43,170 bases of DNA from a virus (taxonomy: Duplodnaviria > Heunggongvirae > Uroviricota > Caudoviricetes), in the IMG/VR virus record IMGVR_UViG_2534682162_000010, one strand, 5' to 3'. Of this stretch, positions 5,031 through 30,414 are shown in pieces. The notes below the pieces were generated by a model that had not been told where the DNA came from, made no database searches, and saw nothing but the letters and a program-made list of their open reading frames with translations. Positions within the stretch are counted from its first letter, which is position 1. The number at the start of each line of letters is the position of its first letter. The position numbers and the translations under genes are program-made.

Positions 5031-5134
5031 TGGTTGTATTTAAGATGGATTTATTTTGTGACTTGCATCGCATAGCGATAACTGAAGCGAGGTCGTGGTG
5101 GTTTTTTGAACGGTGTGTGATGAGGGGAGGGCAA

Positions 5135-5165
5135 AAGAAAACCCGGCACGGTGGCCGGGTTTAGA
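5135..5165 (-). terminator. Intrinsic terminator ending the repressor operon (tIMM-like)
   Basis: On the minus strand, a 7-bp stem (ACCCGGC / GCCGGGT, 6-nt loop) is followed by TTTCTTTTG, about 75 nt after the stop of the 147-aa gene. Confidence 0.6.
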
Positions 5166-5236
5166 TGATTGGTTAAGAGCGAGGGTAATGGGGAATGAAA
5201 AATCGCTTTACCTAATGCAAGGGTGCGAGCATTTTC

Positions 5237-5680
5237 TTAAGCACTAAAGAAAAAGTACATTGATAGCTTATAAAGTCCTGTTCCTGCAGCGATGATTGCT
5301 GGAACACCAAGCAATACCGCAAGCTTTGCGTCTGAAATCTTTCTATCGACAGCATCACTTGATGGCTTGTTTGTTAAGGATTCTTTTATAGAGTCCAGAC
5401 GTGCAAGAATAGTTATCATATTTTTGTCGATAGCTTTAACGTCTGTTTTAAGTTCATCAACGTCTCGTTTGATATGAGCAACATCGGACTCCAGTTTTGC
5501 AACTTTTTCAGGCATGTTATCACTCCCAGACCCACTGCTACCACTTGATTGTAGCATGTCCCATCTTTTTCCAGATATACCTGCTAGCTGGGAAGACGCA
5601 CTGGAGTGCAAACAAAATGATTCTGCCGCCTTTGCAATTTTATCATTTAGGTTTGGAGCTTCGTAATAATCGTGTTTCAT
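5237..5680 (-). CDS. Tail-anchored coiled-coil membrane protein (147 aa), lysogeny-operon cargo, function unknown
   Basis: ORF with a Ser/Gly-rich linker, a charged heptad-like segment (EKVAKLESDVAHIKRDVDELKTDVKAIDKNMITILARLDSIKESL) and one C-terminal hydrophobic helix (LAVLLGVPAIIAAGTGLY); AT-rich; lies between cI and OL/PL. Confidence 0.6.
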   Translation of the reverse strand: MKHDYYEAPNLNDKIAKAAESFCLHSSASSQLAGISGKRWDMLQSSGSSGSGSDNMPEKVAKLESDVAHIKRDVDELKTDVKAIDKNMITILARLDSIKESLTNKPSSDAVDRKISDAKLAVLLGVPAIIAAGTGLYKLSMYFFFSA

Positions 5681-5692
5681 AATTAATTACGA

Positions 5693-5955
5693 TTAGTTTG
5701 TTTTAGCTTTGTCATGCTGGTCGCGAATGAAGTCAGCCAATTTAAGCATCAATTCTTCGGGCATTCTAATGGTTGCAATGTTGTACTTTATGTTCTCAAC
5801 ATCGTCACTTTCATCAACAGGCCATTCAGTTACATTATGAAAAAAGAAATTGAACCTAGGCGCTGAGAGCCGTCACCAAACGAAGAGTAGCCAAACGCGT
5901 CGGCGTATGCATCGACACAGTTATTTGATTTTTTAACAAGTGTTTTATTACTCAT
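5693..5955 (-). CDS. Hypothetical small protein with an apparent -1 frame change at a T6C run (41-aa ORF 5830-5955; continuation in -1 frame to 5693 gives about 87 aa)
   Basis: ATG at 5955 with SD-like GGAAAGG; frame 0 stops after 41 codons just past tcttttttc (plus-strand A6 at 5840-5845); the -1 frame stays open for 48 more codons and ends 12 nt before the downstream gene. Could be a pseudogene, programmed frameshift or sequence error. Confidence 0.35.
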
Positions 5956-6037
5956 TTTTTGCCTTTCCCGTAATGTTATTTTTTATAAGGTATTTTCTTC
6001 AGCGTATTACCCAAAAGCCTCATCAACACGCGGCTGA

Positions 6038-6727
6038 TTATCCGTGTTTTCTGTACGTCTGCGGCATGCTCCCAATAACCTTACCGAATATGAATACCCG
6101 GTTCATCTCGTCTTTCTCGATCGGGTCCCACGGTGAGTAGCTCTTGTTATCAGAGATAACCAGTAGCTTATCCTTCATCATTTGCAGGCGCTTTACATGG
6201 GCGGTGTCGTCATACAGAAACGCATAGATACCATCACCGTCGAAAGATTTAACCGTGATATCAACGAACAGCAGATCACCTGGTTCGATCGTTCCTGACA
6301 TGCTGTCACCGCGTACGTTAATGATGCGGATATTTTCTGCCTTCCTACCATCGAACATGTGACGAGCATCGTCAAACGAGTACTCAACCGAGCGTAGAAC
6401 TTCTACAAACTCACGGTTGATGACTCCCGGCCCGGCACTCACTTCTATATCAAGAACGTCAATCTTAAAGTATTTGGAATGGCTGACAGTTGATGGTATT
6501 GGTTGCACTGTACTGTCTGACATATTTCCAACGCCAGAAGATAACCATTCTGCGCGCACACCCAAAGCGTTCGCGATCTCCACGATTTTAGTTGTTTGGT
6601 TAGCTTTCCCTGTTTCGATTTTCTGAATAGCAGCTTGGCTAACCCCGACCAAATCCCCAAGCGCCTTTTGTGTAAGGCCTCGCGCTAATCTGGCTTCTTT
6701 AAGTCTTTCTGAGAGTGTTGTTTTCAT
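6038..6727 (-). CDS. cI: CI-like prophage repressor (HTH_XRE + S24 LexA-like peptidase)
   Basis: MKTTLSERLKEARLARGLTQKALGDLVGVSQAAIQKIETG (HTH); Ala-Gly cleavage site (EVSAGPG); catalytic Ser in GDSM and Lys in VKRL. Start moved from the track ATG at 6793 (inside the operator) to the ATG at 6727. Confidence 0.88.
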   Translation of the reverse strand: MKTTLSERLKEARLARGLTQKALGDLVGVSQAAIQKIETGKANQTTKIVEIANALGVRAEWLSSGVGNMSDSTVQPIPSTVSHSKYFKIDVLDIEVSAGPGVINREFVEVLRSVEYSFDDARHMFDGRKAENIRIINVRGDSMSGTIEPGDLLFVDITVKSFDGDGIYAFLYDDTAHVKRLQMMKDKLLVISDNKSYSPWDPIEKDEMNRVFIFGKVIGSMPQTYRKHG

Positions 6728-6831
6728 AGTCCAAATGTACAACCAAGGTTTTATTCCATCAAACGAAAATGGTTGTTGACTAAAAACAACCATAGTTTTA
6801 ATCTTGATTCAAATTAACCACGGAGGTTGTT
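6728..6831. promoter_or_regulatory. OR region with divergent PRM and PR
   Basis: Perfect 25-bp palindrome ATGGTTGTTGACTAAAAACAACCAT (6769-6793) containing PR -35 TTGACT; SD ggagg before cro. On the minus strand TTGATG-17 nt-TACATT places the start at or next to the cI ATG, implying a leaderless cI mRNA as at lambda PRM. Confidence 0.6.
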
Positions 6832-7062
6832 ATGAACCCAGCTATCAAAACAGCGATCAATATCGTTGGTTCACAAAAGAAACTGGGCGCTGCCTGCGAA
6901 GTTTCACAGCAGGCCGTCTATAAGTGGCTTCACAACAAAGCAAAGGTATCCCCTGAACATGTCGGCAGCATTGTTACGGCTACTGGTGGAGTAGTGAAGG
7001 CATACCAGATTCGCCCGGATCTTCCGAAGTTGTTTCCACACACCGAAAAGAACGCAGCTTAA
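6832..7062 (+). CDS. cro: Cro-like repressor (YdaS-family HTH)
   Basis: 76-aa ORF transcribed divergently from cI directly after OR; resembles YdaS-type Cro proteins (GSQKKLGAACEVSQQAVYKW). Confidence 0.8.
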   Translation: MNPAIKTAINIVGSQKKLGAACEVSQQAVYKWLHNKAKVSPEHVGSIVTATGGVVKAYQIRPDLPKLFPHTEKNAA

Positions 7063-7131: not shown

Positions 7132-7671
7132 ATGCAACCACTTACATACCAACAGACTAGCGGATTTAGCCCGACTGCGGTGATAAATCGTTCTCAAACA
7201 AAACAGGTGCCAGGCCACGAAAAAATCCGTGATGCCGTCCGCGCCTGGTCGGCTGAAGATAATCAGGATGTCGTTGCCACACTCATTGTGAATGAGTATC
7301 GGGAGCAGGGCGGCGGCACTATCGATTTCCCTGATGATGTCAGCCGTGCACGCCAGAAGCTGTTCCGCTTCCTCGATAACAAATTCGATTCTGAAAAATA
7401 CCGAAATAACGTGCGTGAACTGACCCCGGCAATTCTGGCGGTACTACCGCTGGAATATCGCGGCCACCTGGTTGAGCAGGATAGCTTCATGGCTCGGCTG
7501 GCTGAAATGGAAAAGGAACTCTGTGAGGCAAAGCAGGCGGTCATTCTCAACGCACCACGCCACCAGAAACTGAAGGAGATGAGTGAAGGCATTGTGTCGA
7601 TGTTTCGAGTGGACCCGGATCTGGCTGGTCCATTGATGGCGATGGTCACCGCCATGCTGGGGGCAATATGA
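7132..7671 (+). CDS. YdaT-family protein (CII-position regulator)
   Basis: 179 aa; motifs VNEYREQGGG and LTPAILAVLPLEYRGHL resemble Rac prophage YdaT; sits between cro and O. Confidence 0.6.
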   Translation: MQPLTYQQTSGFSPTAVINRSQTKQVPGHEKIRDAVRAWSAEDNQDVVATLIVNEYREQGGGTIDFPDDVSRARQKLFRFLDNKFDSEKYRNNVRELTPAILAVLPLEYRGHLVEQDSFMARLAEMEKELCEAKQAVILNAPRHQKLKEMSEGIVSMFRVDPDLAGPLMAMVTAMLGAI

Positions 7672-9684: not shown

Positions 9685-9751
9685 TGAAACAGGTGAGTTG
9701 AGTTCAAACTGTAGTACAATTCTCTCCAGTTTGAACAGGAAAGAATATGCT

Positions 9752-10084
9752 ATGAACCCTTATATTTATCTTGGTGGTGCAATACTTGCAGAGGTCATTG
9801 GTACAACCTTAATGAAGTTTTCAGAAGGTTTTACACGGTTATGGCCATCTGTTGGTACAATTATTTGTTATTGTGCATCATTCTGGTTATTAGCTCAGAC
9901 GCTGGCTTATATTCCTACAGGGATTGCTTATGCTATCTGGTCAGGAGTCGGTATTGTCCTGATTAGTTTACTGTCATGGGGATTTTTCGGCCAACGGCTG
10001 GACCTGCCAGCCATTATAGGCATGATGTTGATTTGTGCCGGTGTGTTGGTTATTAATTTATTGTCACGAAGCACACCACATTAA
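9752..10084 (+). CDS. emrE: EmrE small multidrug resistance efflux transporter
   Basis: 110 aa from MNPYIYLGGAILAEVIGTTLMKFSEGFTRLWPSVGTIICYCASFWLLAQTLAYIPTGIAYAIWSGVGIV...; four TM helices with conserved Glu14. Confidence 0.93.
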   Translation: MNPYIYLGGAILAEVIGTTLMKFSEGFTRLWPSVGTIICYCASFWLLAQTLAYIPTGIAYAIWSGVGIVLISLLSWGFFGQRLDLPAIIGMMLICAGVLVINLLSRSTPH

Positions 10085-10114
10085 AATAATTTGTTTCTAA
10101 ACGACTAAAATATG

Positions 10115-10155
10115 GAGGCTCTTATATTTATATGAGCCTCGTTTTATGCTTTTTG
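10115..10155 (+). terminator. Intrinsic terminator after emrE
   Basis: Stem GAGGCTC / GAGCCTC with a 12-nt AT loop followed by GTTTTATGCTTTTTG. Confidence 0.6.
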
Positions 10156-10338
10156 TTAATGTCTTTATTTTTTATGTATTCTTTTGTGCTTTCAAGATTA
10201 TGGCGTAAGAAAATTGCAATACGATTATTGTTGTATATTCAAGATAATGTGACCTTAATTGTCTTTTTAAATAAAAATTAAACAAAAATTATATCCCACC
10301 ACTAAGGTTTATAAAAGCATACGTTAGCAGGTGTCACC

Positions 10339-11865
10339 ATGAAAAAAGCCATAGCATATATGCGATTTTCATCACCAGGTCAGATGTCTGGTGACTCATT
10401 AAACCGACAGAGAAGACTTATTGCTGAATGGTTAAAGGTAAATAGTGATTATTATCTTGATACCATAACATATGAAGATTTAGGATTAAGTGCATTCAAA
10501 GGAAAGCATGCACAATCAGGAGCTTTTTCGGAATTTTTAGATGCTATAGAGCATGGTTATATATTGCCAGGAACTACATTGTTAGTTGAAAGTCTGGACA
10601 GACTTTCAAGAGAAAAAGTCGGTGAAGCGATTGAACGTCTGAAATTGATTTTGAATCACGGTATTGATGTTATAACTCTTTGCGACAATACAGTCTATAA
10701 TATTGACTCTTTGAATGAGCCATATTCATTAATAAAAGCCATACTTATAGCACAAAGGGCAAATGAAGAAAGCGAGATAAAGTCAAGTCGGGTTAAATTA
10801 TCATGGAAGAAAAAACGGCAGGATGCACTGGAATCAGGTACGATTATGACGGCGTCTTGTCCGAGATGGCTCTCCTTAGATGACAAAAGAACGGCTTTTG
10901 TTCCAGACCCCGACAGGGTGAAAACTATTGAGCTAATTTTTAAACTCAGGATGGAAAGGCGCTCATTGAATGCAATAGCCAAGTATTTAAATGATCATGC
11001 TGTAAAGAATTTCTCAGGAAAAGAAAGTGCATGGGGACCTTCTGTAATTGAAAAATTATTAGCGAATAAAGCTCTGATAGGTATATGCGTACCTTCATAT
11101 CGTGCAAGAGGGAAAGGGATAAGTGAAATCGCTGGCTATTATCCCAGAGTCATATCAGATGATTTGTTTTACGCTGTACAGGAAATTCGGTTGGCACCTT
11201 TTGGTATTAGCAATAGTAGCAAGAATCCTATGCTAATAAATCTACTTCGAACAGTTATGAAGTGTGAGGCTTGTGGTAATACCATGATTGTTCATGCGGT
11301 ATCTGGAAGTTTGCATGGCTATTATGTTTGTCCGATGAGAAGATTACATCGATGTGACAGGCCATCAATAAAAAGAGATTTGGTTGATTATAATATCATT
11401 AATGAATTGCTTTTTAATTGTAGCAAAATTCAACCAGTTGAAAACAAGAAAGATGCTAATGAAACTTTAGAGTTAAAAATTATTGAGCTTCAGATGAAAA
11501 TTAATAATTTAATCGTTGCATTGTCTGTCGCGCCTGAAGTTACCGCTATAGCAGAGAAAATAAGACTATTAGATAAGGAATTACGAAGGGCTTCGGTATC
11601 ATTGAAAACTTTGAAGAGTAAAGGTGTAAATTCATTCAGTGATTTTTATGCTATTGACTTAACCAGTAAAAATGGACGAGAGTTATGCCGTACACTTGCC
11701 TATAAAACATTCGAAAAAATCATAATTAATACGGATAATAAAACCTGTGATATCTATTTTATGAATGGCATTGTTTTTAAACACTATCCTTTAATGAAAG
11801 TAATATCCGCCCAGCAGGCGATAAGTGCTCTCAAATATATGGTTGATGGTGAGATTTATTTCTAA
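10339..11865 (+). CDS. ybcK: Large serine recombinase (DLP12 YbcK-type)
   Basis: 508 aa; N-terminal resolvase-type domain (AIAYMRFSSPGQ...SLNRQ, catalytic Ser), recombinase and zinc-ribbon region (CEACGNT...C...C); very AT-rich gene. Confidence 0.85.
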   Translation: MKKAIAYMRFSSPGQMSGDSLNRQRRLIAEWLKVNSDYYLDTITYEDLGLSAFKGKHAQSGAFSEFLDAIEHGYILPGTTLLVESLDRLSREKVGEAIERLKLILNHGIDVITLCDNTVYNIDSLNEPYSLIKAILIAQRANEESEIKSSRVKLSWKKKRQDALESGTIMTASCPRWLSLDDKRTAFVPDPDRVKTIELIFKLRMERRSLNAIAKYLNDHAVKNFSGKESAWGPSVIEKLLANKALIGICVPSYRARGKGISEIAGYYPRVISDDLFYAVQEIRLAPFGISNSSKNPMLINLLRTVMKCEACGNTMIVHAVSGSLHGYYVCPMRRLHRCDRPSIKRDLVDYNIINELLFNCSKIQPVENKKDANETLELKIIELQMKINNLIVALSVAPEVTAIAEKIRLLDKELRRASVSLKTLKSKGVNSFSDFYAIDLTSKNGRELCRTLAYKTFEKIIINTDNKTCDIYFMNGIVFKHYPLMKVISAQQAISALKYMVDGEIYF

Positions 11866-12063
11866 ATAATGATCTCGGATTTTAAGTTATGCTATGGTGA
11901 TAAAGTGCAAGATAGAATTAATTATCTTTGACGAAACTTAATGGGTAATTACTTTGTTTGCTCCCACAAGCGAGTTTTGTACGGCTGTATTGGGGTAGTA
12001 AATGAGCTATACAATCTTAATCATTTGTTAGGTGAGAACTCTTGGTCGCAGATTCAAATACTG

Positions 12064-12113
12064 AAAATACGTGACAAATTATTATGAGCAAAATGGTGTA
12101 TGTCACGTATTTT
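12064..12113. repeat. Perfect 13-bp inverted repeat with 24-bp spacer
   Basis: AAAATACGTGACA (12064-12076) and TGTCACGTATTTT (12101-12113) are exact reverse complements; located in the AT-rich ybcK-ybcL intergenic region. Confidence 0.8.
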
Positions 12114-12329
12114 GAATGGTAGGTTAAAAAATAACACCGACTTTCGTAGGTATTACTAATAATAAAGCAGAGTTTTTAGATAGTATCAATGTGCTTTGTG
12201 TATATTGTGGCAAATAATTGGGTTGGGGGTACAATTGTGATTGCTTTTGCATGAACATTGCGCCTTTATGCATAATGAGATAAAGGAATATCAAATAAAA
12301 TAACGATAGGTCATAACAAAGAGGTTTTT

Positions 12330-12881
12330 ATGAAAACACTTATCGTTTCAACTGTATTGGCATTCATAACATTTTCTGCGCAGGCTGCGGCATTTCAGGT
12401 CACTAGTAATGAAATAAAAACAGGAGAGCAACTTAAAACGTCTCATGTCTTTTCTGGATTTGGGTGTGAAGGTGGTAATACATCGCCCTCATTAACCTGG
12501 TCTGGTGTTCCTGAAGGTACCAAAAGCTTTGCCGTAACTGTATATGATCCAGATGCACCTACAGGCAGTGGTTGGTGGCATTGGACTGTTGTTAATATTC
12601 CAGCAACAGTAACATATTTGCCCGTTGATGCAGGGAGACGTGATGGAACAAAACTGCCGACTGGTGCTGTTCAAGGCCGAAATGATTTTGGCTATGCTGG
12701 GTTTGGTGGCGCATGTCCTCCTAAAGGAGATAAACCACATCATTACCAGTTTAAAGTATGGGCTCTAAAAACTGAAAAGATTCCTGTAGATTCTAACTCC
12801 AGCGGAGCGTTAGTTGGTTATATGCTTAATGCTAATAAAATCGCAACCGCTGAGATAACACCAGTTTATGAGATAAAGTAG
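12330..12881 (+). CDS. ybcL: Secreted PEBP/YbhB-family protein (DLP12 YbcL-type)
   Basis: 183 aa with signal peptide MKTLIVSTVLAFITFSAQAAA and PEBP-like core (DPDAP...GWWHW...HHYQFKVWAL). Confidence 0.85.
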   Translation: MKTLIVSTVLAFITFSAQAAAFQVTSNEIKTGEQLKTSHVFSGFGCEGGNTSPSLTWSGVPEGTKSFAVTVYDPDAPTGSGWWHWTVVNIPATVTYLPVDAGRRDGTKLPTGAVQGRNDFGYAGFGGACPPKGDKPHHYQFKVWALKTEKIPVDSNSSGALVGYMLNANKIATAEITPVYEIK

Positions 12882-12890
12882 GGTGAGAGT

Positions 12891-13688
12891 ATGCTGGCAA
12901 GAGGTAAGACTAACTTAAAGATCGAAGAAATACGGATGCATAAACATCATGAGATTCATAGGGTTAAGCCTCTTATGCCAGCTTTGTGTCGTATCCGTCA
13001 GGGAAAGAAAGTTATCAATTGGGAGACGCATACTTTAACTGTTGATAATAATCAAATAATATTATTTCCTTGTGGTTATGAATTTTATATTGAGAATTAT
13101 CCTGAAGCAGGGCTTTATCTTGCAGAAATGCTTTACTTACCCATTGATTTAATTGAGAGTTTCCAAAAACTTTATACGGTAACTGATCAAATACGTAACA
13201 AAACAAGTTTCTTTTTACCTCAAAATCCTGAGTTAATATATTGTTGGGAGCAACTAAAAACATCTGTTTCCCGAGGCTTCTCAACTAAAATTCAGGAGCA
13301 CTTAGCAATGGGCGTTCTACTTTCGTTAGGAGTGAATCATGTTAATCATTTACTTTTATCATATAGTAAACAATCATTGATAAGTCGTTGTTATAACCTG
13401 CTGCTATCCGAACCCGGCACAAAATGGACAGCAAACAAGGTTGCTCGATATCTCTACATTTCTGTTTCTACATTACATCGCCGTCTAGCAAGCGAGGGGG
13501 TAAGTTTCCAAAGTATACTGGACGATGTGAGGTTAAATAATGCGTTGTCTGCTATACAAACGACGGTAAAACCTATAAGCGAGATTGCCAGAGAAAATGG
13601 TTATAAGTGTCCTTCTCGTTTTACTGAAAGATTTCATAATCGTTTTAATATAACACCAAGAGAGATAAGAAAAGCTTCCAGAGAGTAA
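12891..13688 (+). CDS. ybcM: AraC-family transcriptional regulator (DLP12 YbcM-type)
   Basis: 265 aa; C-terminal AraC-type HTH ([37 protein letters not shown]...[22 protein letters not shown]). Confidence 0.85.
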
Positions 13689-13902
13689 AAGTGTTTTAAG
13701 AAGGAGCAATTCTATCGATTTTGATTTTGGGAAATCAACACGGCATAATTATGTCACCGGAGCCTGAACAACTCCGGTGACTTCTGCGCTAAACGGGGAC
13801 GTTTATGCGCACATACAATCCAAACTCTCTTCTCCCTTCACAGATGCAGAAATGCACCTGCAATTCTTTGCATCTAGCGTTTGACCTCTGCGGAGGTGAA
13901 GC

Positions 13903-14358
13903 GTGAACCTCTCACAAGACGGCATCAAATTACATCGCGGCAACTTCACCGCTATCGGTCGGCAGATCCAGCCTTATCTGGAGGAGGGCAAATGCTTTCG
14001 CATGGTGCTTAAACCGTGGCGTGAGAAACGCAGTCTTTCCCAGAATGCACTCAGCCACATGTGGTACAGCGAAATCAGTGAATACCTCATCAGCAGGGGT
14101 AAAACGTTCGCCACTCCAGCTTGGGTAAAAGATGCTCTCAAACACACATATCTCGGTTATGAAACCAAAGACCTGGTTGATGTCGTAACCGGTGATATCA
14201 CCACTATCCAGTCGTTACGCCATACCTCCGATCTTGATACCGGAGAGATGTATGTCTTCCTGTGTAAGGTTGAAGCCTGGGCGGTGAATATTGGCTGCCA
14301 CCTGACTATTCCGCAGAGCTGCGAGTTCCAGCTGCTCCGCGACAAGCAGGAGGCGTAA
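13903..14358 (+). CDS. ybcN: NinB/YbcN-family DNA-binding recombination protein
   Basis: 151-aa ORF at the start of the nin region; matches DLP12 YbcN from memory. Confidence 0.75.
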
Positions 14359-14528
14359 TGGCTACACCGCTTATTCGTGTCATGAACGGACACATCTACA
14401 GAGTATCAAATCGTCGTAAGCGTAAGCCTGAGCTGAAGCCATCCGAAATACCAACACTGCTCGGATATACCGCTAGCCTGGTTGATAAAAAATGGTTGCG
14501 ACTGGCAGCAAGGAGGAATCATGGCTGA
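14358..14528 (+). CDS. ninE: NinE
   Basis: 56-aa [59 protein letters not shown]; its ATG shares a base with the ybcN stop (TAATG); not in the >=60-aa track. Confidence 0.8.
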   Translation: MATPLIRVMNGHIYRVSNRRKRKPELKPSEIPTLLGYTASLVDKKWLRLAARRNHG

Positions 14529-14811
14529 TTTGAGAAAAGCAGCGCGTGGTCGGGAATGCCAGGTAAGAATCCCTGGCGTATGTAATGGCAATTCTGAAAC
14601 GTCTGTACTGGCACATATCCGGCTGGCTGGATTGTGCGGTACCGGTATCAAACCGCCAGACCTGATTGCCACCATTGCATGTTCTGCCTGCCACGACGAA
14701 ATCGACCGCCGCACACATTTTGTCGATGCTGCATATGCAAAAGAATGCGCGCTGGAAGGTATGGCGAGAACACAGGTTATCTGGCTGAAAGAGGGGGTTA
14801 TTAAGGCGTGA
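14521..14811 (+). CDS. ybcO: YbcO-family nin-region nuclease
   Basis: 96 aa from the ATG at 14521 ([24 protein letters not shown]...); overlaps the ninE end. The track start at 14482 is a TTG. Confidence 0.75.
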
Positions 14812-15170
14812 ATACCTACAGTATCACATTACCCTGGCCTCCGAGCAATAATCGCTATTACCGCCATAATCGCGGGCGCACGCACGTCAGTGCAGAGGGG
14901 CAGGCATACCGCGATAACGTCGCCCGAATCATTAAAAACGCAATGCTGGATATCGGCCTGGCTATGCCTGTGAAAATCCGCATTGAGTGCCACATGCCGG
15001 ATCGCCGTCGCCGTGACCTGGATAATCTGCAAAAAGCCGCTTTTGACGCACTCACTAAAGCAGGTTTCTGGCTGGATGATGCTCAGGTCGTTGATTACCG
15101 CGTTGTGAAGATGCCTGTTACCAAAGGTGGGAGGCTGGAACTGACCATCACCGAAATGGGGAATGAATGA
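14808..15170 (+). CDS. rusA: RusA Holliday-junction resolvase
   Basis: 120-aa translation [42 protein letters not shown]...[34 protein letters not shown] matches RusA. Confidence 0.93.
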
Positions 15171-15307
15171 TGTTTGAGTTTAATATGGCAGAACTTCTTC
15201 GCCACCGCTGGGGGCGTCTGCGCTTATATCGTTTCCCCGGTTCTGTTTTGACCGATTACCGAATACTGAAGAATTACGCCAAAACCCTGACAGGAGCAGG
15301 AGTATGA
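15167..15307 (+). CDS. ylcG: YlcG small protein
   Basis: 46-aa [49 protein letters not shown] overlapping the rusA stop (ATGA). Confidence 0.65.
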
Positions 15308-15392
15308 AGTCAGAGATAACAATCAACTAATACTGTTTTGTTGATTTTTGCTTGTAATTGGCGTTCTGGTCTGATTTTTGTGGAGTAAGTTG

Positions 15393-15776
15393 ATGCGTGA
15401 TATTCAGATGGTTCTTGAGCGTTGGGGAGCGTGGGCGGCTAATAATCATGAAGATGTGACCTGGTCGTCCATTGCCGCCGGTTTTAAGGGATTAATTACT
15501 TCAAAAGTAAAATCTCGCCCGCAATGTTGTGACGATGACGCGATGATCATTTGCGGGTGCATGGCCCGTCTGAAAAAGAACAACAGCGATTTGCACGATT
15601 TATTAGTAGATTATTATGTAGTCGGTATGACATTCATGTCACTGGCAGGTAAGCATTGCTGCTCTGATGGTTATATCGGGAAAAGGTTACAGAAGGCTGA
15701 GGGCATAATTGAAGGGATGTTAATGGCATTAGATATCCGGTTAGAGATGGATATCGTTGTTAATAACTCTAATTAA
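15393..15776 (+). CDS. quuD: Late-gene antiterminator Q (DLP12 QuuD-type)
   Basis: 127 aa from the ATG at 15393 ([22 protein letters not shown]...), with Cys-rich zinc-binding region and SD ggag; position between nin region and lysis genes. Confidence 0.8.
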
Positions 15777-15964
15777 TATGCCAATTGTTTACTAAAAATT
15801 ATTAAAAATGGGGCGTTGAAACGCCCCCAAAAATAAAGGGTAATATATAACAGAAGGTTTATATAGTTAGAAGCAAGGTTGTGCTTCTAAAGGAAGTGGC
15901 TTGAGGGAGCCACTTATATGTTGGGGAGGCAAAGCCTCCCACAACATATCTTTTAGTAATCAAA

Positions 15965-17047
15965 TTAGAACTGGTAAACCATACCTACAGCAACGATATC
16001 ATCGGTAGCAACGCCAGATGCTTTCGTGAAATCGCTCTTATCAATCAGGTTGATTTTGTAATCAACAAAAGTGGACATATTTTTGTTGAAGTAATAGGTT
16101 GCACCTACATCAATATATTCAACCAGGTCCTGATCACCCCACGCACCCAAGTCTTTTCCTTTAGATTGCAGGTAAGCAACGGACGGACGCAGACCGAAGT
16201 CGAACTGATATTGTGCAACTACTTCGAAGTTTTGTGCTTTGTTGGCAATATGGTTATTACCAAAAACAGTCATGTTCTGGGTTTCAGAATAGGTGGTAGC
16301 CAGATAGATGTTGTTCGCATCATATTTCAGACCAGCTGCCCATACTTCAGCATTTTGACCAGATGCATTCAGGCTGTTGTTACCGTAGATAACCTGATTA
16401 TTAGTGCGGTCAGATTTAGCATAGGTTGCACCTACACCGAATCCTTCATACTCATAAGTAGTGGAGAAACCGAAACCATCACCATTAGCTTCAGTTACGT
16501 CAGTGCGGTCATTTTTACCCTGATACTGAGCAGCAAAGTTCAGACCATCAACCAGACCAAAGAAGTCGTTGTTACGATAAGTTGCAACACCAGTGGTGCG
16601 ACCAGTCATGAACACATCTGTTTGGGTCCAGGTATCGCCACCGAATTCTGGCAGAACGTCAGTCCACGCACCGATGTCATATGCTACACCGTAGTTACGG
16701 CCGTAATCGATTGAGCCGTAGTCCCCGAATTTCAGGCCTGCAAATGCAAGACGGGTTTTGTCTTTGGAGGAGCCTTGAGATTCAGCGCGGTTGCCTTTGA
16801 ATTCATATTCCCACTGACCGAAACCAGTCAGTTGATCGTTGATTTGGGTTTCACCTTTGAAGCCAAGACGGGCATAAGTAGTATCACCATCATCTGCATC
16901 ATTAGAGGAGAAGTAGTGCTTGGCATTAACTTTCCCATATAGATCCAGCTTGTTACTGTCTTTATTATAAATTTCAGCTGCCTGAGCAGACATCGCCATC
17001 AGTACTGATGCAGCTACAGCAGAAATTGCCACTGTTAATTTTTTCAT
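15965..17047 (-). CDS. nmpC: General porin, OmpC/OmpF/PhoE/NmpC family, intact
   Basis: 360 aa with signal peptide [23 protein letters not shown] and terminal ...VGMVYQF; 16-strand porin hallmarks; antisense to the phage late direction between Q and the holin. Confidence 0.92.
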
Positions 17048-17475
17048 CGTGAGCCCTTTTTTTTGAACTATTATTAAAAAATGATGTCACTGCGCGATAA
17101 ATATTCATCTAATCAATGTGATTATTTCAAGATGTAAGTTTTGGTTTCTCGTTTGATTTGTGAAGTAGATCTCTATTTTTATCTGAACTTTTTTCTATCG
17201 AATCCTATTCATGGCTCTTGGCTGAATAAAAATAAATCTATTAGCCAATTTATATTAACGACTGTTATTTATAAGTGCTCTGTAATTTGAAGGTTCAATT
17301 TAAATCGGCTAAAAATAACACTAGAAATTATTTGTTGGTTATTTGTTGAGATTTGTTTATGTATTTGTAGTGGTGTTTTCAATACTCGGTAGCATTCTCG
17401 CAAATATCATTTTGTGGTTTACGTACGTAAAAAATTGGTTATGCTGTTAAGAGTGGTTACTTCGTCACACAGCTT

Positions 17476-29575: not shown

Positions 29576-29998
29576 ATGTTCCTGAAAACCGAATCATTTG
29601 AACATAACGGCGTGACCGTCACGCTTTCTGAACTGTCAGCCCTGCAGCGTATTGAGCATCTCGCCCTGATGAAACGGCAGGCAGAACAGGCGGAGTCAGA
29701 CAGCAACCGGAAGTTTACTGTGGAAGACGCCATCAGAACCGGCGCGTTTCTGGTGGCGATGTCCCTGTGGCATAACCATCCGCAGAAGACGCAGATGCCG
29801 TCCATGAATGAAGCCGTTAAACAGATTGAGCAGGAAGTGCTTACCACCTGGCCCACGGAGGCAATTTCTCATGCTGAAAACGTGGTGTACCGGCTGTCTG
29901 GTATGTATGAGTTTGTGGTGAATAATGCCCCTGAACAGACAGAGGACGCCGGGCCCGCAGAGCCTGTTTCTGCGGGAAAGTGTTCGACGGTGAGCTGA
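29576..29998 (+). CDS. G: Tail assembly chaperone G
   Basis: 140-aa translation MFLKTESFEHNGVTVTLSELSALQRIEHLALMKRQAEQAESDSNRKFTVEDAIRTGAFLV... matches lambda gpG. Confidence 0.94.
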   Translation: MFLKTESFEHNGVTVTLSELSALQRIEHLALMKRQAEQAESDSNRKFTVEDAIRTGAFLVAMSLWHNHPQKTQMPSMNEAVKQIEQEVLTTWPTEAISHAENVVYRLSGMYEFVVNNAPEQTEDAGPAEPVSAGKCSTVS

Positions 29999-30414
29999 GT
30001 TTTGCCCTGAAACTGGCGCGTGAGATGGGGCGACCCGACTGGCGTGCCATGCTTGCCGGGATGTCATCCACGGAGTATGCCGACTGGCACCGCTTTTACA
30101 GTACCCATTATTTTCATGATGTTCTGCTGGATATGCACTTTTCCGGGCTGACGTACACCGTGCTCAGCCTGTTTTTCAGCGATCCGGATATGCATCCGCT
30201 GGATTTCAGTCTGCTGAACCGGCGCGAGGCTGACGAAGAGCCTGAAGATGATGTGCTGATGCAGAAAGCGGCAGGGCTTGCCGGAGGTGTCCGCTTTGGC
30301 CCGGACGGGAATGAAGTTATCCCCGCTTCCCCGGATGTGGCGGACATGACGGAGGATGACGTAATGCTGATGACAGTATCAGAAGGGATCGCAGGAGGAG
30401 TCCGGTATGGCTGA
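29974..30414 (+). CDS. T: T segment of the G-T fusion chaperone, reached by -1 programmed frameshift at G GGA AAG (29974-29980)
   Basis: Slippery heptamer GGGAAAG near the end of G; the -1 frame is open to 30414 (...FDGELSFALKLAREMGRPDWRAMLAGMSSTEYADWHRFY...) and has no independent start context, as in lambda G-T. Confidence 0.85.
   Translation, partial: GKVFDGELSFALKLAREMGRPDWRAMLAGMSSTEYADWHRFYSTHYFHDVLLDMHFSGLTYTVLSLFFSDPDMHPLDFSLLNRREADEEPEDDVLMQKAAGLAGGVRFGPDGNEVIPASPDVADMTEDDVMLMTVSEGIAGGVRYG

Follow-up and report, generated by a model that had tools for sequence, protein, structure and literature searches.

The window, that is, the whole stretch of 43,170 nucleotides analyzed here, is a lambdoid prophage at a DLP12-type site, with the integrase at its left end. 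It shares approximately 98 to 99% identity with prophages of many E. coli strains and with ECOR-derived phages such as PhiR34_1. On its minus strand, a CI-type repressor gene is followed by two small genes, referred to here as gene A and gene B, and the reading frame of gene A changes at a run of six T's. The features of this region are as follows.

6038-6793, minus strand: CI-type repressor (HTH and S24 peptidase), directly upstream of gene A
5693-5955, minus strand: whole gene A remnant, 263 nt, corresponding to the 264-nt CDS of WP_000066829.1 minus one T
5830-5955, minus strand: 5' part of gene A, 41 codons from the ATG at 5955, with its TAA at 5832-5830
5839-5845, minus strand: T TTT TTC heptamer, containing the T6 run at 5840-5845 (A6 on the plus strand)
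5693-5839, minus strand: 3' part of gene A, in the -1 frame, 48 codons, with its TAA at 5695-5693
5237-5680, minus strand: gene B, 147 aa, with a coiled coil and one C-terminal hydrophobic segment (phrog_3556)
5139-5162, minus strand: terminator-like hairpin and T-tract, after gene B

Translation confirmed the coordinates and frames given in an earlier annotation made from the letters of the window (the sequence-only reading). A 41-codon open reading frame (ORF) starts at the ATG at 5955 and ends just past T TTT TTC, and the -1 frame stays open for 48 more codons, its TAA preceding the ATG of gene B (5680) by 12 nt. The heptamer, which reads tc T TTT TTC at 5845-5839, fits the X XXY YYZ pattern, as that reading had also claimed, and is in phase with the ATG at 5955. 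The 5' part (window:5830-5955:-) translates to MSNKTLVKKSNNCVDAYADAFGYSSFGDGSQRLGSISFFIM*, which corresponds to residues 1 to 39 of an intact 87-aa protein followed by an out-of-frame Ile-Met-stop. The -1 frame (window:5693-5959:-) reads ...RFNFFFHNVTEWPVDESDDVENIKYNIATIRMPEELMLKLADFIRDQHDKAKTN*, with the tail portion HNVTEW...DKAKTN, and the 3' part is identical at 48 of 48 positions to the C-terminal half of WP_000066829.1.

In the -1 frame, a stop precedes the His codon by 11 codons, and between that stop and an internal Met there is no ATG, GTG, or TTG from which translation could start. This rules out separate production of the downstream piece, and independent initiation of this half of the gene was rejected, given that the internal Met would yield only 23 aa. 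The junction peptide that had been proposed earlier, ...SISFFFHNVTEW..., contains three Phe residues and has to be corrected, because a -1 slip on U UUU UUC gives ...SISFFHNVTEW..., with two. The predicted junction peptide of a -1 product from the T6 allele is LGSISFFHNVTEWPVDESDDVENIK.

Tract length and continuity of gene A among homologues

A 401-nt query around the site had matches in 155 complete E. coli genomes. Identity reached 99.8% in the best of these, which spanned 402 nt, one base more than the query, and the alignment identified the extra base as a seventh T, in the codons TCT TTT TTT CAT for Ser-Phe-Phe-His. Relative to this T7 tract in all intact copies, the heptamer of the window is one base short. 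The prevalence of the T7 form was measured with a 71-nt query from O26:H11 strain 11368 at a match of at least 99%, which at this length means exact identity. The exact T7 sequence was found in 151 of the 155 complete genomes with the locus, which are all of the lambdoid copies (151/151). The T6 version of the window, used as a 64-nt query, had no exact match in any complete E. coli genome. The other four genomes carry a diverged copy, with 84 to 89% nucleotide identity, in the immI region of P22-like prophages. The one examined of these four (E. coli E4) is T7, as is the P22-like copy of Salmonella phage UPF_BP1.

The intact form is annotated in RefSeq as a single continuous CDS of 264 nt encoding 87 aa (WP_000066829.1). 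With the T restored, the 87-aa sequence has an exact counterpart in the database, seen on more than 1000 contigs, and restored gene A matches phrog_4231, an 87-aa prophage protein, over its full length (E = 2.3e-52). The DNA of the window equals that of L001 except in the T run.

A protein search showed that the gene A family is small and confined to enterobacterial prophages, with members in Leclercia, Serratia, Raoultella, Salmonella, and E. albertii. All of them are single ORFs of 87 to 98 aa in which the junction GSI(S/A)FF(H/Q/K)xV is kept, including the Leclercia, Serratia, and Raoultella homologues, which are 89 to 98 aa long at 60 to 76% protein identity. The DNA of the homologues has T runs of 5 to 7, and its in-frame Phe-Phe codons are TTT TTT or TTT TTC. 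The heptamer T TTT TTC itself is present in phase in the Leclercia gene, whose frame 0 continues through it.

Between the lambdoid and P22-like copies, the downstream half differs by approximately 7 synonymous to 2 non-synonymous changes, in a continuous frame. This predominance of synonymous changes indicates that the downstream half is translated as a continuation of the upstream half. Moreover, the 100% identity of the downstream frame with the C-terminal half of the 87-aa protein points to a split gene and not to a recoding signal. The sequence-only reading had left three options for the break, namely, programmed -1 frameshifting with short and long isoforms, an indel, or a sequencing error, and had suggested that relatives with a different run length and one continuous ORF would point to the latter two. 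Such relatives with a seven-base run were found (all 151 lambdoid copies and both P22-like copies), and the diverged homologues are likewise single ORFs. This evidence supports the indel and error options and does not support programmed frameshifting.

The T6 allele and the quality of the window

The exact 41-aa product of the T6 allele was found on approximately 18 contigs, all of them draft or read-assembly contigs, versus the more than 1000 that encode the intact protein. In all 10 of the fetched loci that encode the 41-aa product, the tract was T6. A T8 allele (...SISFFS*) was seen once, on one contig. The 151 complete genomes show no variation in tract length, and T6 and T8 occur only in draft or read-assembly contigs.

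The T6 loci fall into five haplotype groups: {window, L009}, {L005, L012}, {L006, L010, L013, L014}, {L007, L011}, and {L008}. In the third of these, L006, L010, and L013 have no substitutions in 1970 aligned columns against O26:H11 11368, which is T7. With five haplotypes, one of them free of substitutions relative to a T7 genome, the T6 allele is polyphyletic and arose, or was called, independently many times. In every group, one or more contigs carry other one-base homopolymer contractions as well, and these break conserved genes (repO and ydaT) in most groups, four of the five by our count. The additional contractions are as follows.

L008 and L009: repO split into two ORFs
L010: one contraction, in the repO region
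L012: ydaT split
L011: one contraction, intergenic
L014: three more contractions

This scatter of T6 over unrelated backgrounds, together with the accompanying contractions, is the pattern produced by miscalling of homopolymer length. The contig L009 (Logan SRR032849) represents the haplotype of the window, assembled independently but possibly from the same reads. T6 recurs in it, and over 6.1 kb its identity to the window is 99.98%, the sole difference being the repO contraction, which is absent from the window. Early SRR0xxxxx runs are probably 454 data, a point that was not used as evidence.

Alignment to a T7-bearing prophage covered approximately 38 kb of the window and revealed no other homopolymer indel that breaks a gene. 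One-base homopolymer differences from the reference prophage were observed at 5101, 5955-5960, 10082, 10167, 17057, and 17189, all of them outside annotated genes. The lengths at 5101 and in the leader of gene A (A5 or A6 just before the ATG) vary among complete genomes as well, and the differences at 5101 and 5955 are natural polymorphisms. Since no other gene is broken and other differences are natural polymorphisms, the window is not a generally error-ridden assembly. In the comparison of the window with L015, the run lengths were discordant for 1 of 138 5-mers, 2 of 34 6-mers, and 3 of 9 7-mers, and this rise with run length fits real slippage as well as it fits error.

Search for recoding signals around the heptamer

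The sequence TTTTTTC occurs 18 times in the window, versus 10.3 ± 3.1 expected, and is in itself nothing unusual. Comparison of folds with those of shuffled sequences revealed no stimulatory structure 5 to 9 nt downstream of the heptamer, either in the 39-nt fold (-0.6 kcal/mol, z +0.97) or in the 59-nt fold (-5.2 kcal/mol, z +0.36). A hairpin does appear in the 89-nt fold (-16.4 kcal/mol, z -2.5), and 2 of 200 shuffles fold as well. This hairpin (5750-5823, minus strand) begins 16 nt downstream of the heptamer, past the 0-frame stop, in ordinary coding sequence common to all in-frame homologues. It is too distant from the T run for frameshift stimulation and may be due to chance.

A scan of positions 5100-6200 against Rfam returned no frameshift element, the only match being a sub-threshold one to isrJ at 5138-5219 (E = 0.34). 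Upstream of the heptamer there is only AGGU, a 4-nt Shine-Dalgarno-like match that ends 8 nt before it. This motif is identical in all in-frame T7 homologues and is therefore not evidence of selection. The two-frame arrangement itself is absent from the 151 lambdoid copies, from both P22-like copies, and from the Leclercia, Serratia, and Raoultella copies.

The AlphaFold model of a homologue (pLDDT 80) consists of three beta-strands and a C-terminal helix, with Phe38-Phe39 in the middle of the long central beta-strand (33-46). Judging from this model, the 41-aa short form would be deprived of one strand and of the C-terminal helix, and would be half a domain and not a folding unit. Transcriptional slippage as a means of restoring the frame was judged unlikely, given that six T's are fewer than in the runs known to slip appreciably in E. 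coli.

In E. coli, unstimulated X XXZ ZZN heptamers were reported to shift at only 2.1 to 10 times a background of 0.055%, and UUY codons were described as highly shifty (PMC4066793). For the bare heptamer in gene A, these rates give an expected leak well below 1% (PMC4066793), and a true T6 template should yield full-length protein in trace amounts at most.

The window also carries a heptamer of another kind, at the end of the tail chaperone gene G.

29974-29980, plus strand: lambda-type G/GT heptamer G GGA AAG, at the end of the G ORF (29576-29998), with the T frame (29980-30414) open in -1

The reference prophage annotates G and T as separate overlapping genes, and the window keeps both frames. 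This is the genuine, conserved programmed -1 frameshift of the window phage and provides a useful contrast to the break in gene A. As in the lambda G/GT system, the break in gene A combines an X XXY YYZ heptamer with a -1 step into a downstream ORF that overlaps the first. Lambdoid phages and many other tailed phages have kept the two frames of G/GT and need both products, whereas every relative of gene A has a single frame.

Explanations for the frame break

The reading that we favor, with a probability of about 60%, is that the T6 of the window is a homopolymer miscall. Gene A is an ordinary continuous prophage gene of 87 codons in which the Ser-Phe-Phe-His codons create a T7 tract. An undercall in the sequence record would have left this tract as T6, giving a 41-codon stub and an out-of-frame tail of 48 codons, and the real phage would probably be T7 with an intact gene A. 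The break in frame is no recoding signal, and the apparent slippery heptamer is just what is left of the two Phe codons after the loss of one T. That the window is short of one base for a reason other than programming, be it an error or a real deletion, is very likely. Genes split by miscalling or slippage in homopolymers ("frameshifted" pseudogenes) resemble gene A in the loss of one base from a 7-nt run, with both halves identical to the intact gene, and in an intact form that is universal in finished genomes while the broken form is scattered over unrelated backgrounds. We found no substantive difference between gene A and such cases.

A genuine recent deletion of one base by replication slippage in the T7 tract, which would make gene A a pseudogene in the window prophage, is the less probable form of such a loss and is put forward only tentatively. 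The break does lie in a 7-nt homopolymer, a classic slippage site, and the rise of length discordance with run length, the intactness of every other CDS of the window, and the recurrence of T6 in L009 are in line with a real event. The 100% identity of both halves to the intact protein, together with the intactness of gene B, would fit a very recent event. However, T6 is found in 0 of 151 complete genomes, and it is polyphyletic and tracks contigs whose contractions break essential phage genes, a pattern that an artifact of read chemistry fits better than inheritance does. If T6 were real, ribosomes would stop 150 nt before the start of gene B instead of 12 nt, any translational coupling of A and B would be lost, and expression of gene B would probably be lowered.

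Improbable, in our judgment, is a hypermutable contingency (phase-variation) tract in which slippage between T7 and T6 or T8 switches gene A and, by polarity, gene B. T6 (in five backgrounds) and T8 do coexist with T7, and gene A lies in the part of the prophage expressed in the lysogen, where on/off switching could in principle be useful. Nevertheless, seven bases are few for a phase-variable tract, and the 151 complete genomes contain no off allele. The off alleles that exist accompany other homopolymer errors, and the diverged homologues cut the run to T5 or T6 by a synonymous TTC without consequence, so that the tract is not conserved as a tract. A related comparison is provided by "savior" or compensated indels, such as the +1 and -1 mutants in the G7 tract of the herpes simplex thymidine kinase gene, which show low-level compensatory frameshifting (reviewed in PMC5009743). 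As in those mutants, the indel in gene A is of one base in a seven-base run, and the slippery run could yield a trace of full-length protein, but gene A shows no sign of selection for the broken state or of any relevance of leak-through. We consider it just as doubtful that T7 is a slippage hot spot that repeatedly silences the cassette through T6 or T8 alleles in natural lysogens, kept leaky by trace -1 slippage on U UUU UUC, which would amount to a small contingency switch for a lysogen-expressed gene.

Least probable of all is programmed -1 ribosomal frameshifting at U UUU UUC, by which the T6 allele would produce two forms, of 41 and 87 aa. The heptamer has the attributes that prompt such a proposal: it is in the correct phase, the 0-frame stop follows it by 6 nt, a single tRNA-Phe reads both UUU and UUC so that re-pairing would be perfect, and UUY codons are highly shifty in E. 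coli (PMC4066793). Against this, the two-frame arrangement is conserved in no homologue, and neither a structure 5 to 9 nt downstream nor an Rfam element accompanies the heptamer, with only AGGU upstream. Bare heptamers shift at only 2.1 to 10 times background (PMC4066793), T TTT TTC is read in frame 0 in Leclercia, and the short product would not be a folding unit.

For annotation, the two pieces of gene A are best treated as a single gene, with T7 restored or with the label "frameshifted", rather than as a recoding event. Scans for frameshift sites commonly return false positives of this type, split genes with a slippery-looking heptamer, since one base lost from any Phe-Phe or Lys-Lys codon pair leaves a heptamer of this kind.

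The gene A-gene B cassette and its setting

Gene B is intact in the window and equals a widespread allele, and the hairpin at 5139-5162 is likely to be the end of a repressor-A-B transcription unit. All contexts examined show a B-type gene after gene A. The pair lies after cI in lambdoid prophages, after mnt and before gene 16 in P22-like prophages (in phages of E. coli, Salmonella, Leclercia, and Serratia), and in a reverse-strand island among the tail genes in Raoultella. The copies of the cassette are located as follows.

Window: 5237-5955, minus strand
L003 and L004: 1527-2249
L016: 4001-4907
L018: 4001-4689
L019: 4001-4663

The stop codon of gene A and the start of gene B are separated by 12 nt in the window and by 3 nt in the P22-like copies, and they overlap in Leclercia and Serratia. 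This spacing suggests that translation of the two genes may be coupled.

Together, A and B form a mobile cassette of two genes that occupies prophage positions typical of lysogen-expressed genes, those of rexAB and sieA. In the window, the cassette lies directly downstream of the cI-type repressor gene, where lambda has rexA-rexB, and in P22-like phages it lies directly downstream of mnt, where P22 carries sieA between mnt and gene 16. The likeness of A-B to both is by position only, and no sequence or fold similarity to the Rex or Sie proteins was found. The cassette is predicted to encode a small soluble protein (A) and a tail-anchored coiled-coil membrane protein (B). A role in exclusion or in lysogenic conversion can reasonably be proposed from this setting, which makes A-B a candidate exclusion or defense module that may merit separate study.

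Scans of restored gene A against Pfam, NCBIfam, and PADLOC returned no match. For gene B, the same scans gave only weak coiled-coil noise, and PADLOC had no hit for A-B. A literature search with the protein accessions and locus tags found no paper. The C-terminal "IRMPEELMLKLADFI" of gene A was considered as the start of a ribbon-helix-helix and dropped, since the model shows a strand leading into a long C-terminal helix and Pfam gave no Arc/MetJ hit.

A natural fusion of the two genes was observed in P0047, an E. coli protein of 134 aa that combines residues 1 to 57 of a P22-type gene A product with the C-terminal part of a P22-type gene B product. The two are joined at the shared motif DVENIK. 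Because both P22-type genes contain GD/ADVENIK, the fusion looks like a deletion by recombination at this short shared stretch.

Elsewhere in the prophage, the positions of cro and cII are occupied by a YdaS-type gene (76 aa; 6832-7062, plus strand) and a gene with a YdaT domain (179 aa; 7132-7671, plus strand), as in the Rac-like immunity region, and lambda-type O and P replication genes follow this pair. The segment from approximately 9750 to 17100 (aligned to L015 10611-17908) carries DLP12-region cargo, comprising emrE, the ybcK recombinase gene, ybcL/ybcM/ybcN, rusA, quuD, and an ompC/nmpC-type porin gene. An iss/bor-type lipoprotein gene is located after the lysis genes.
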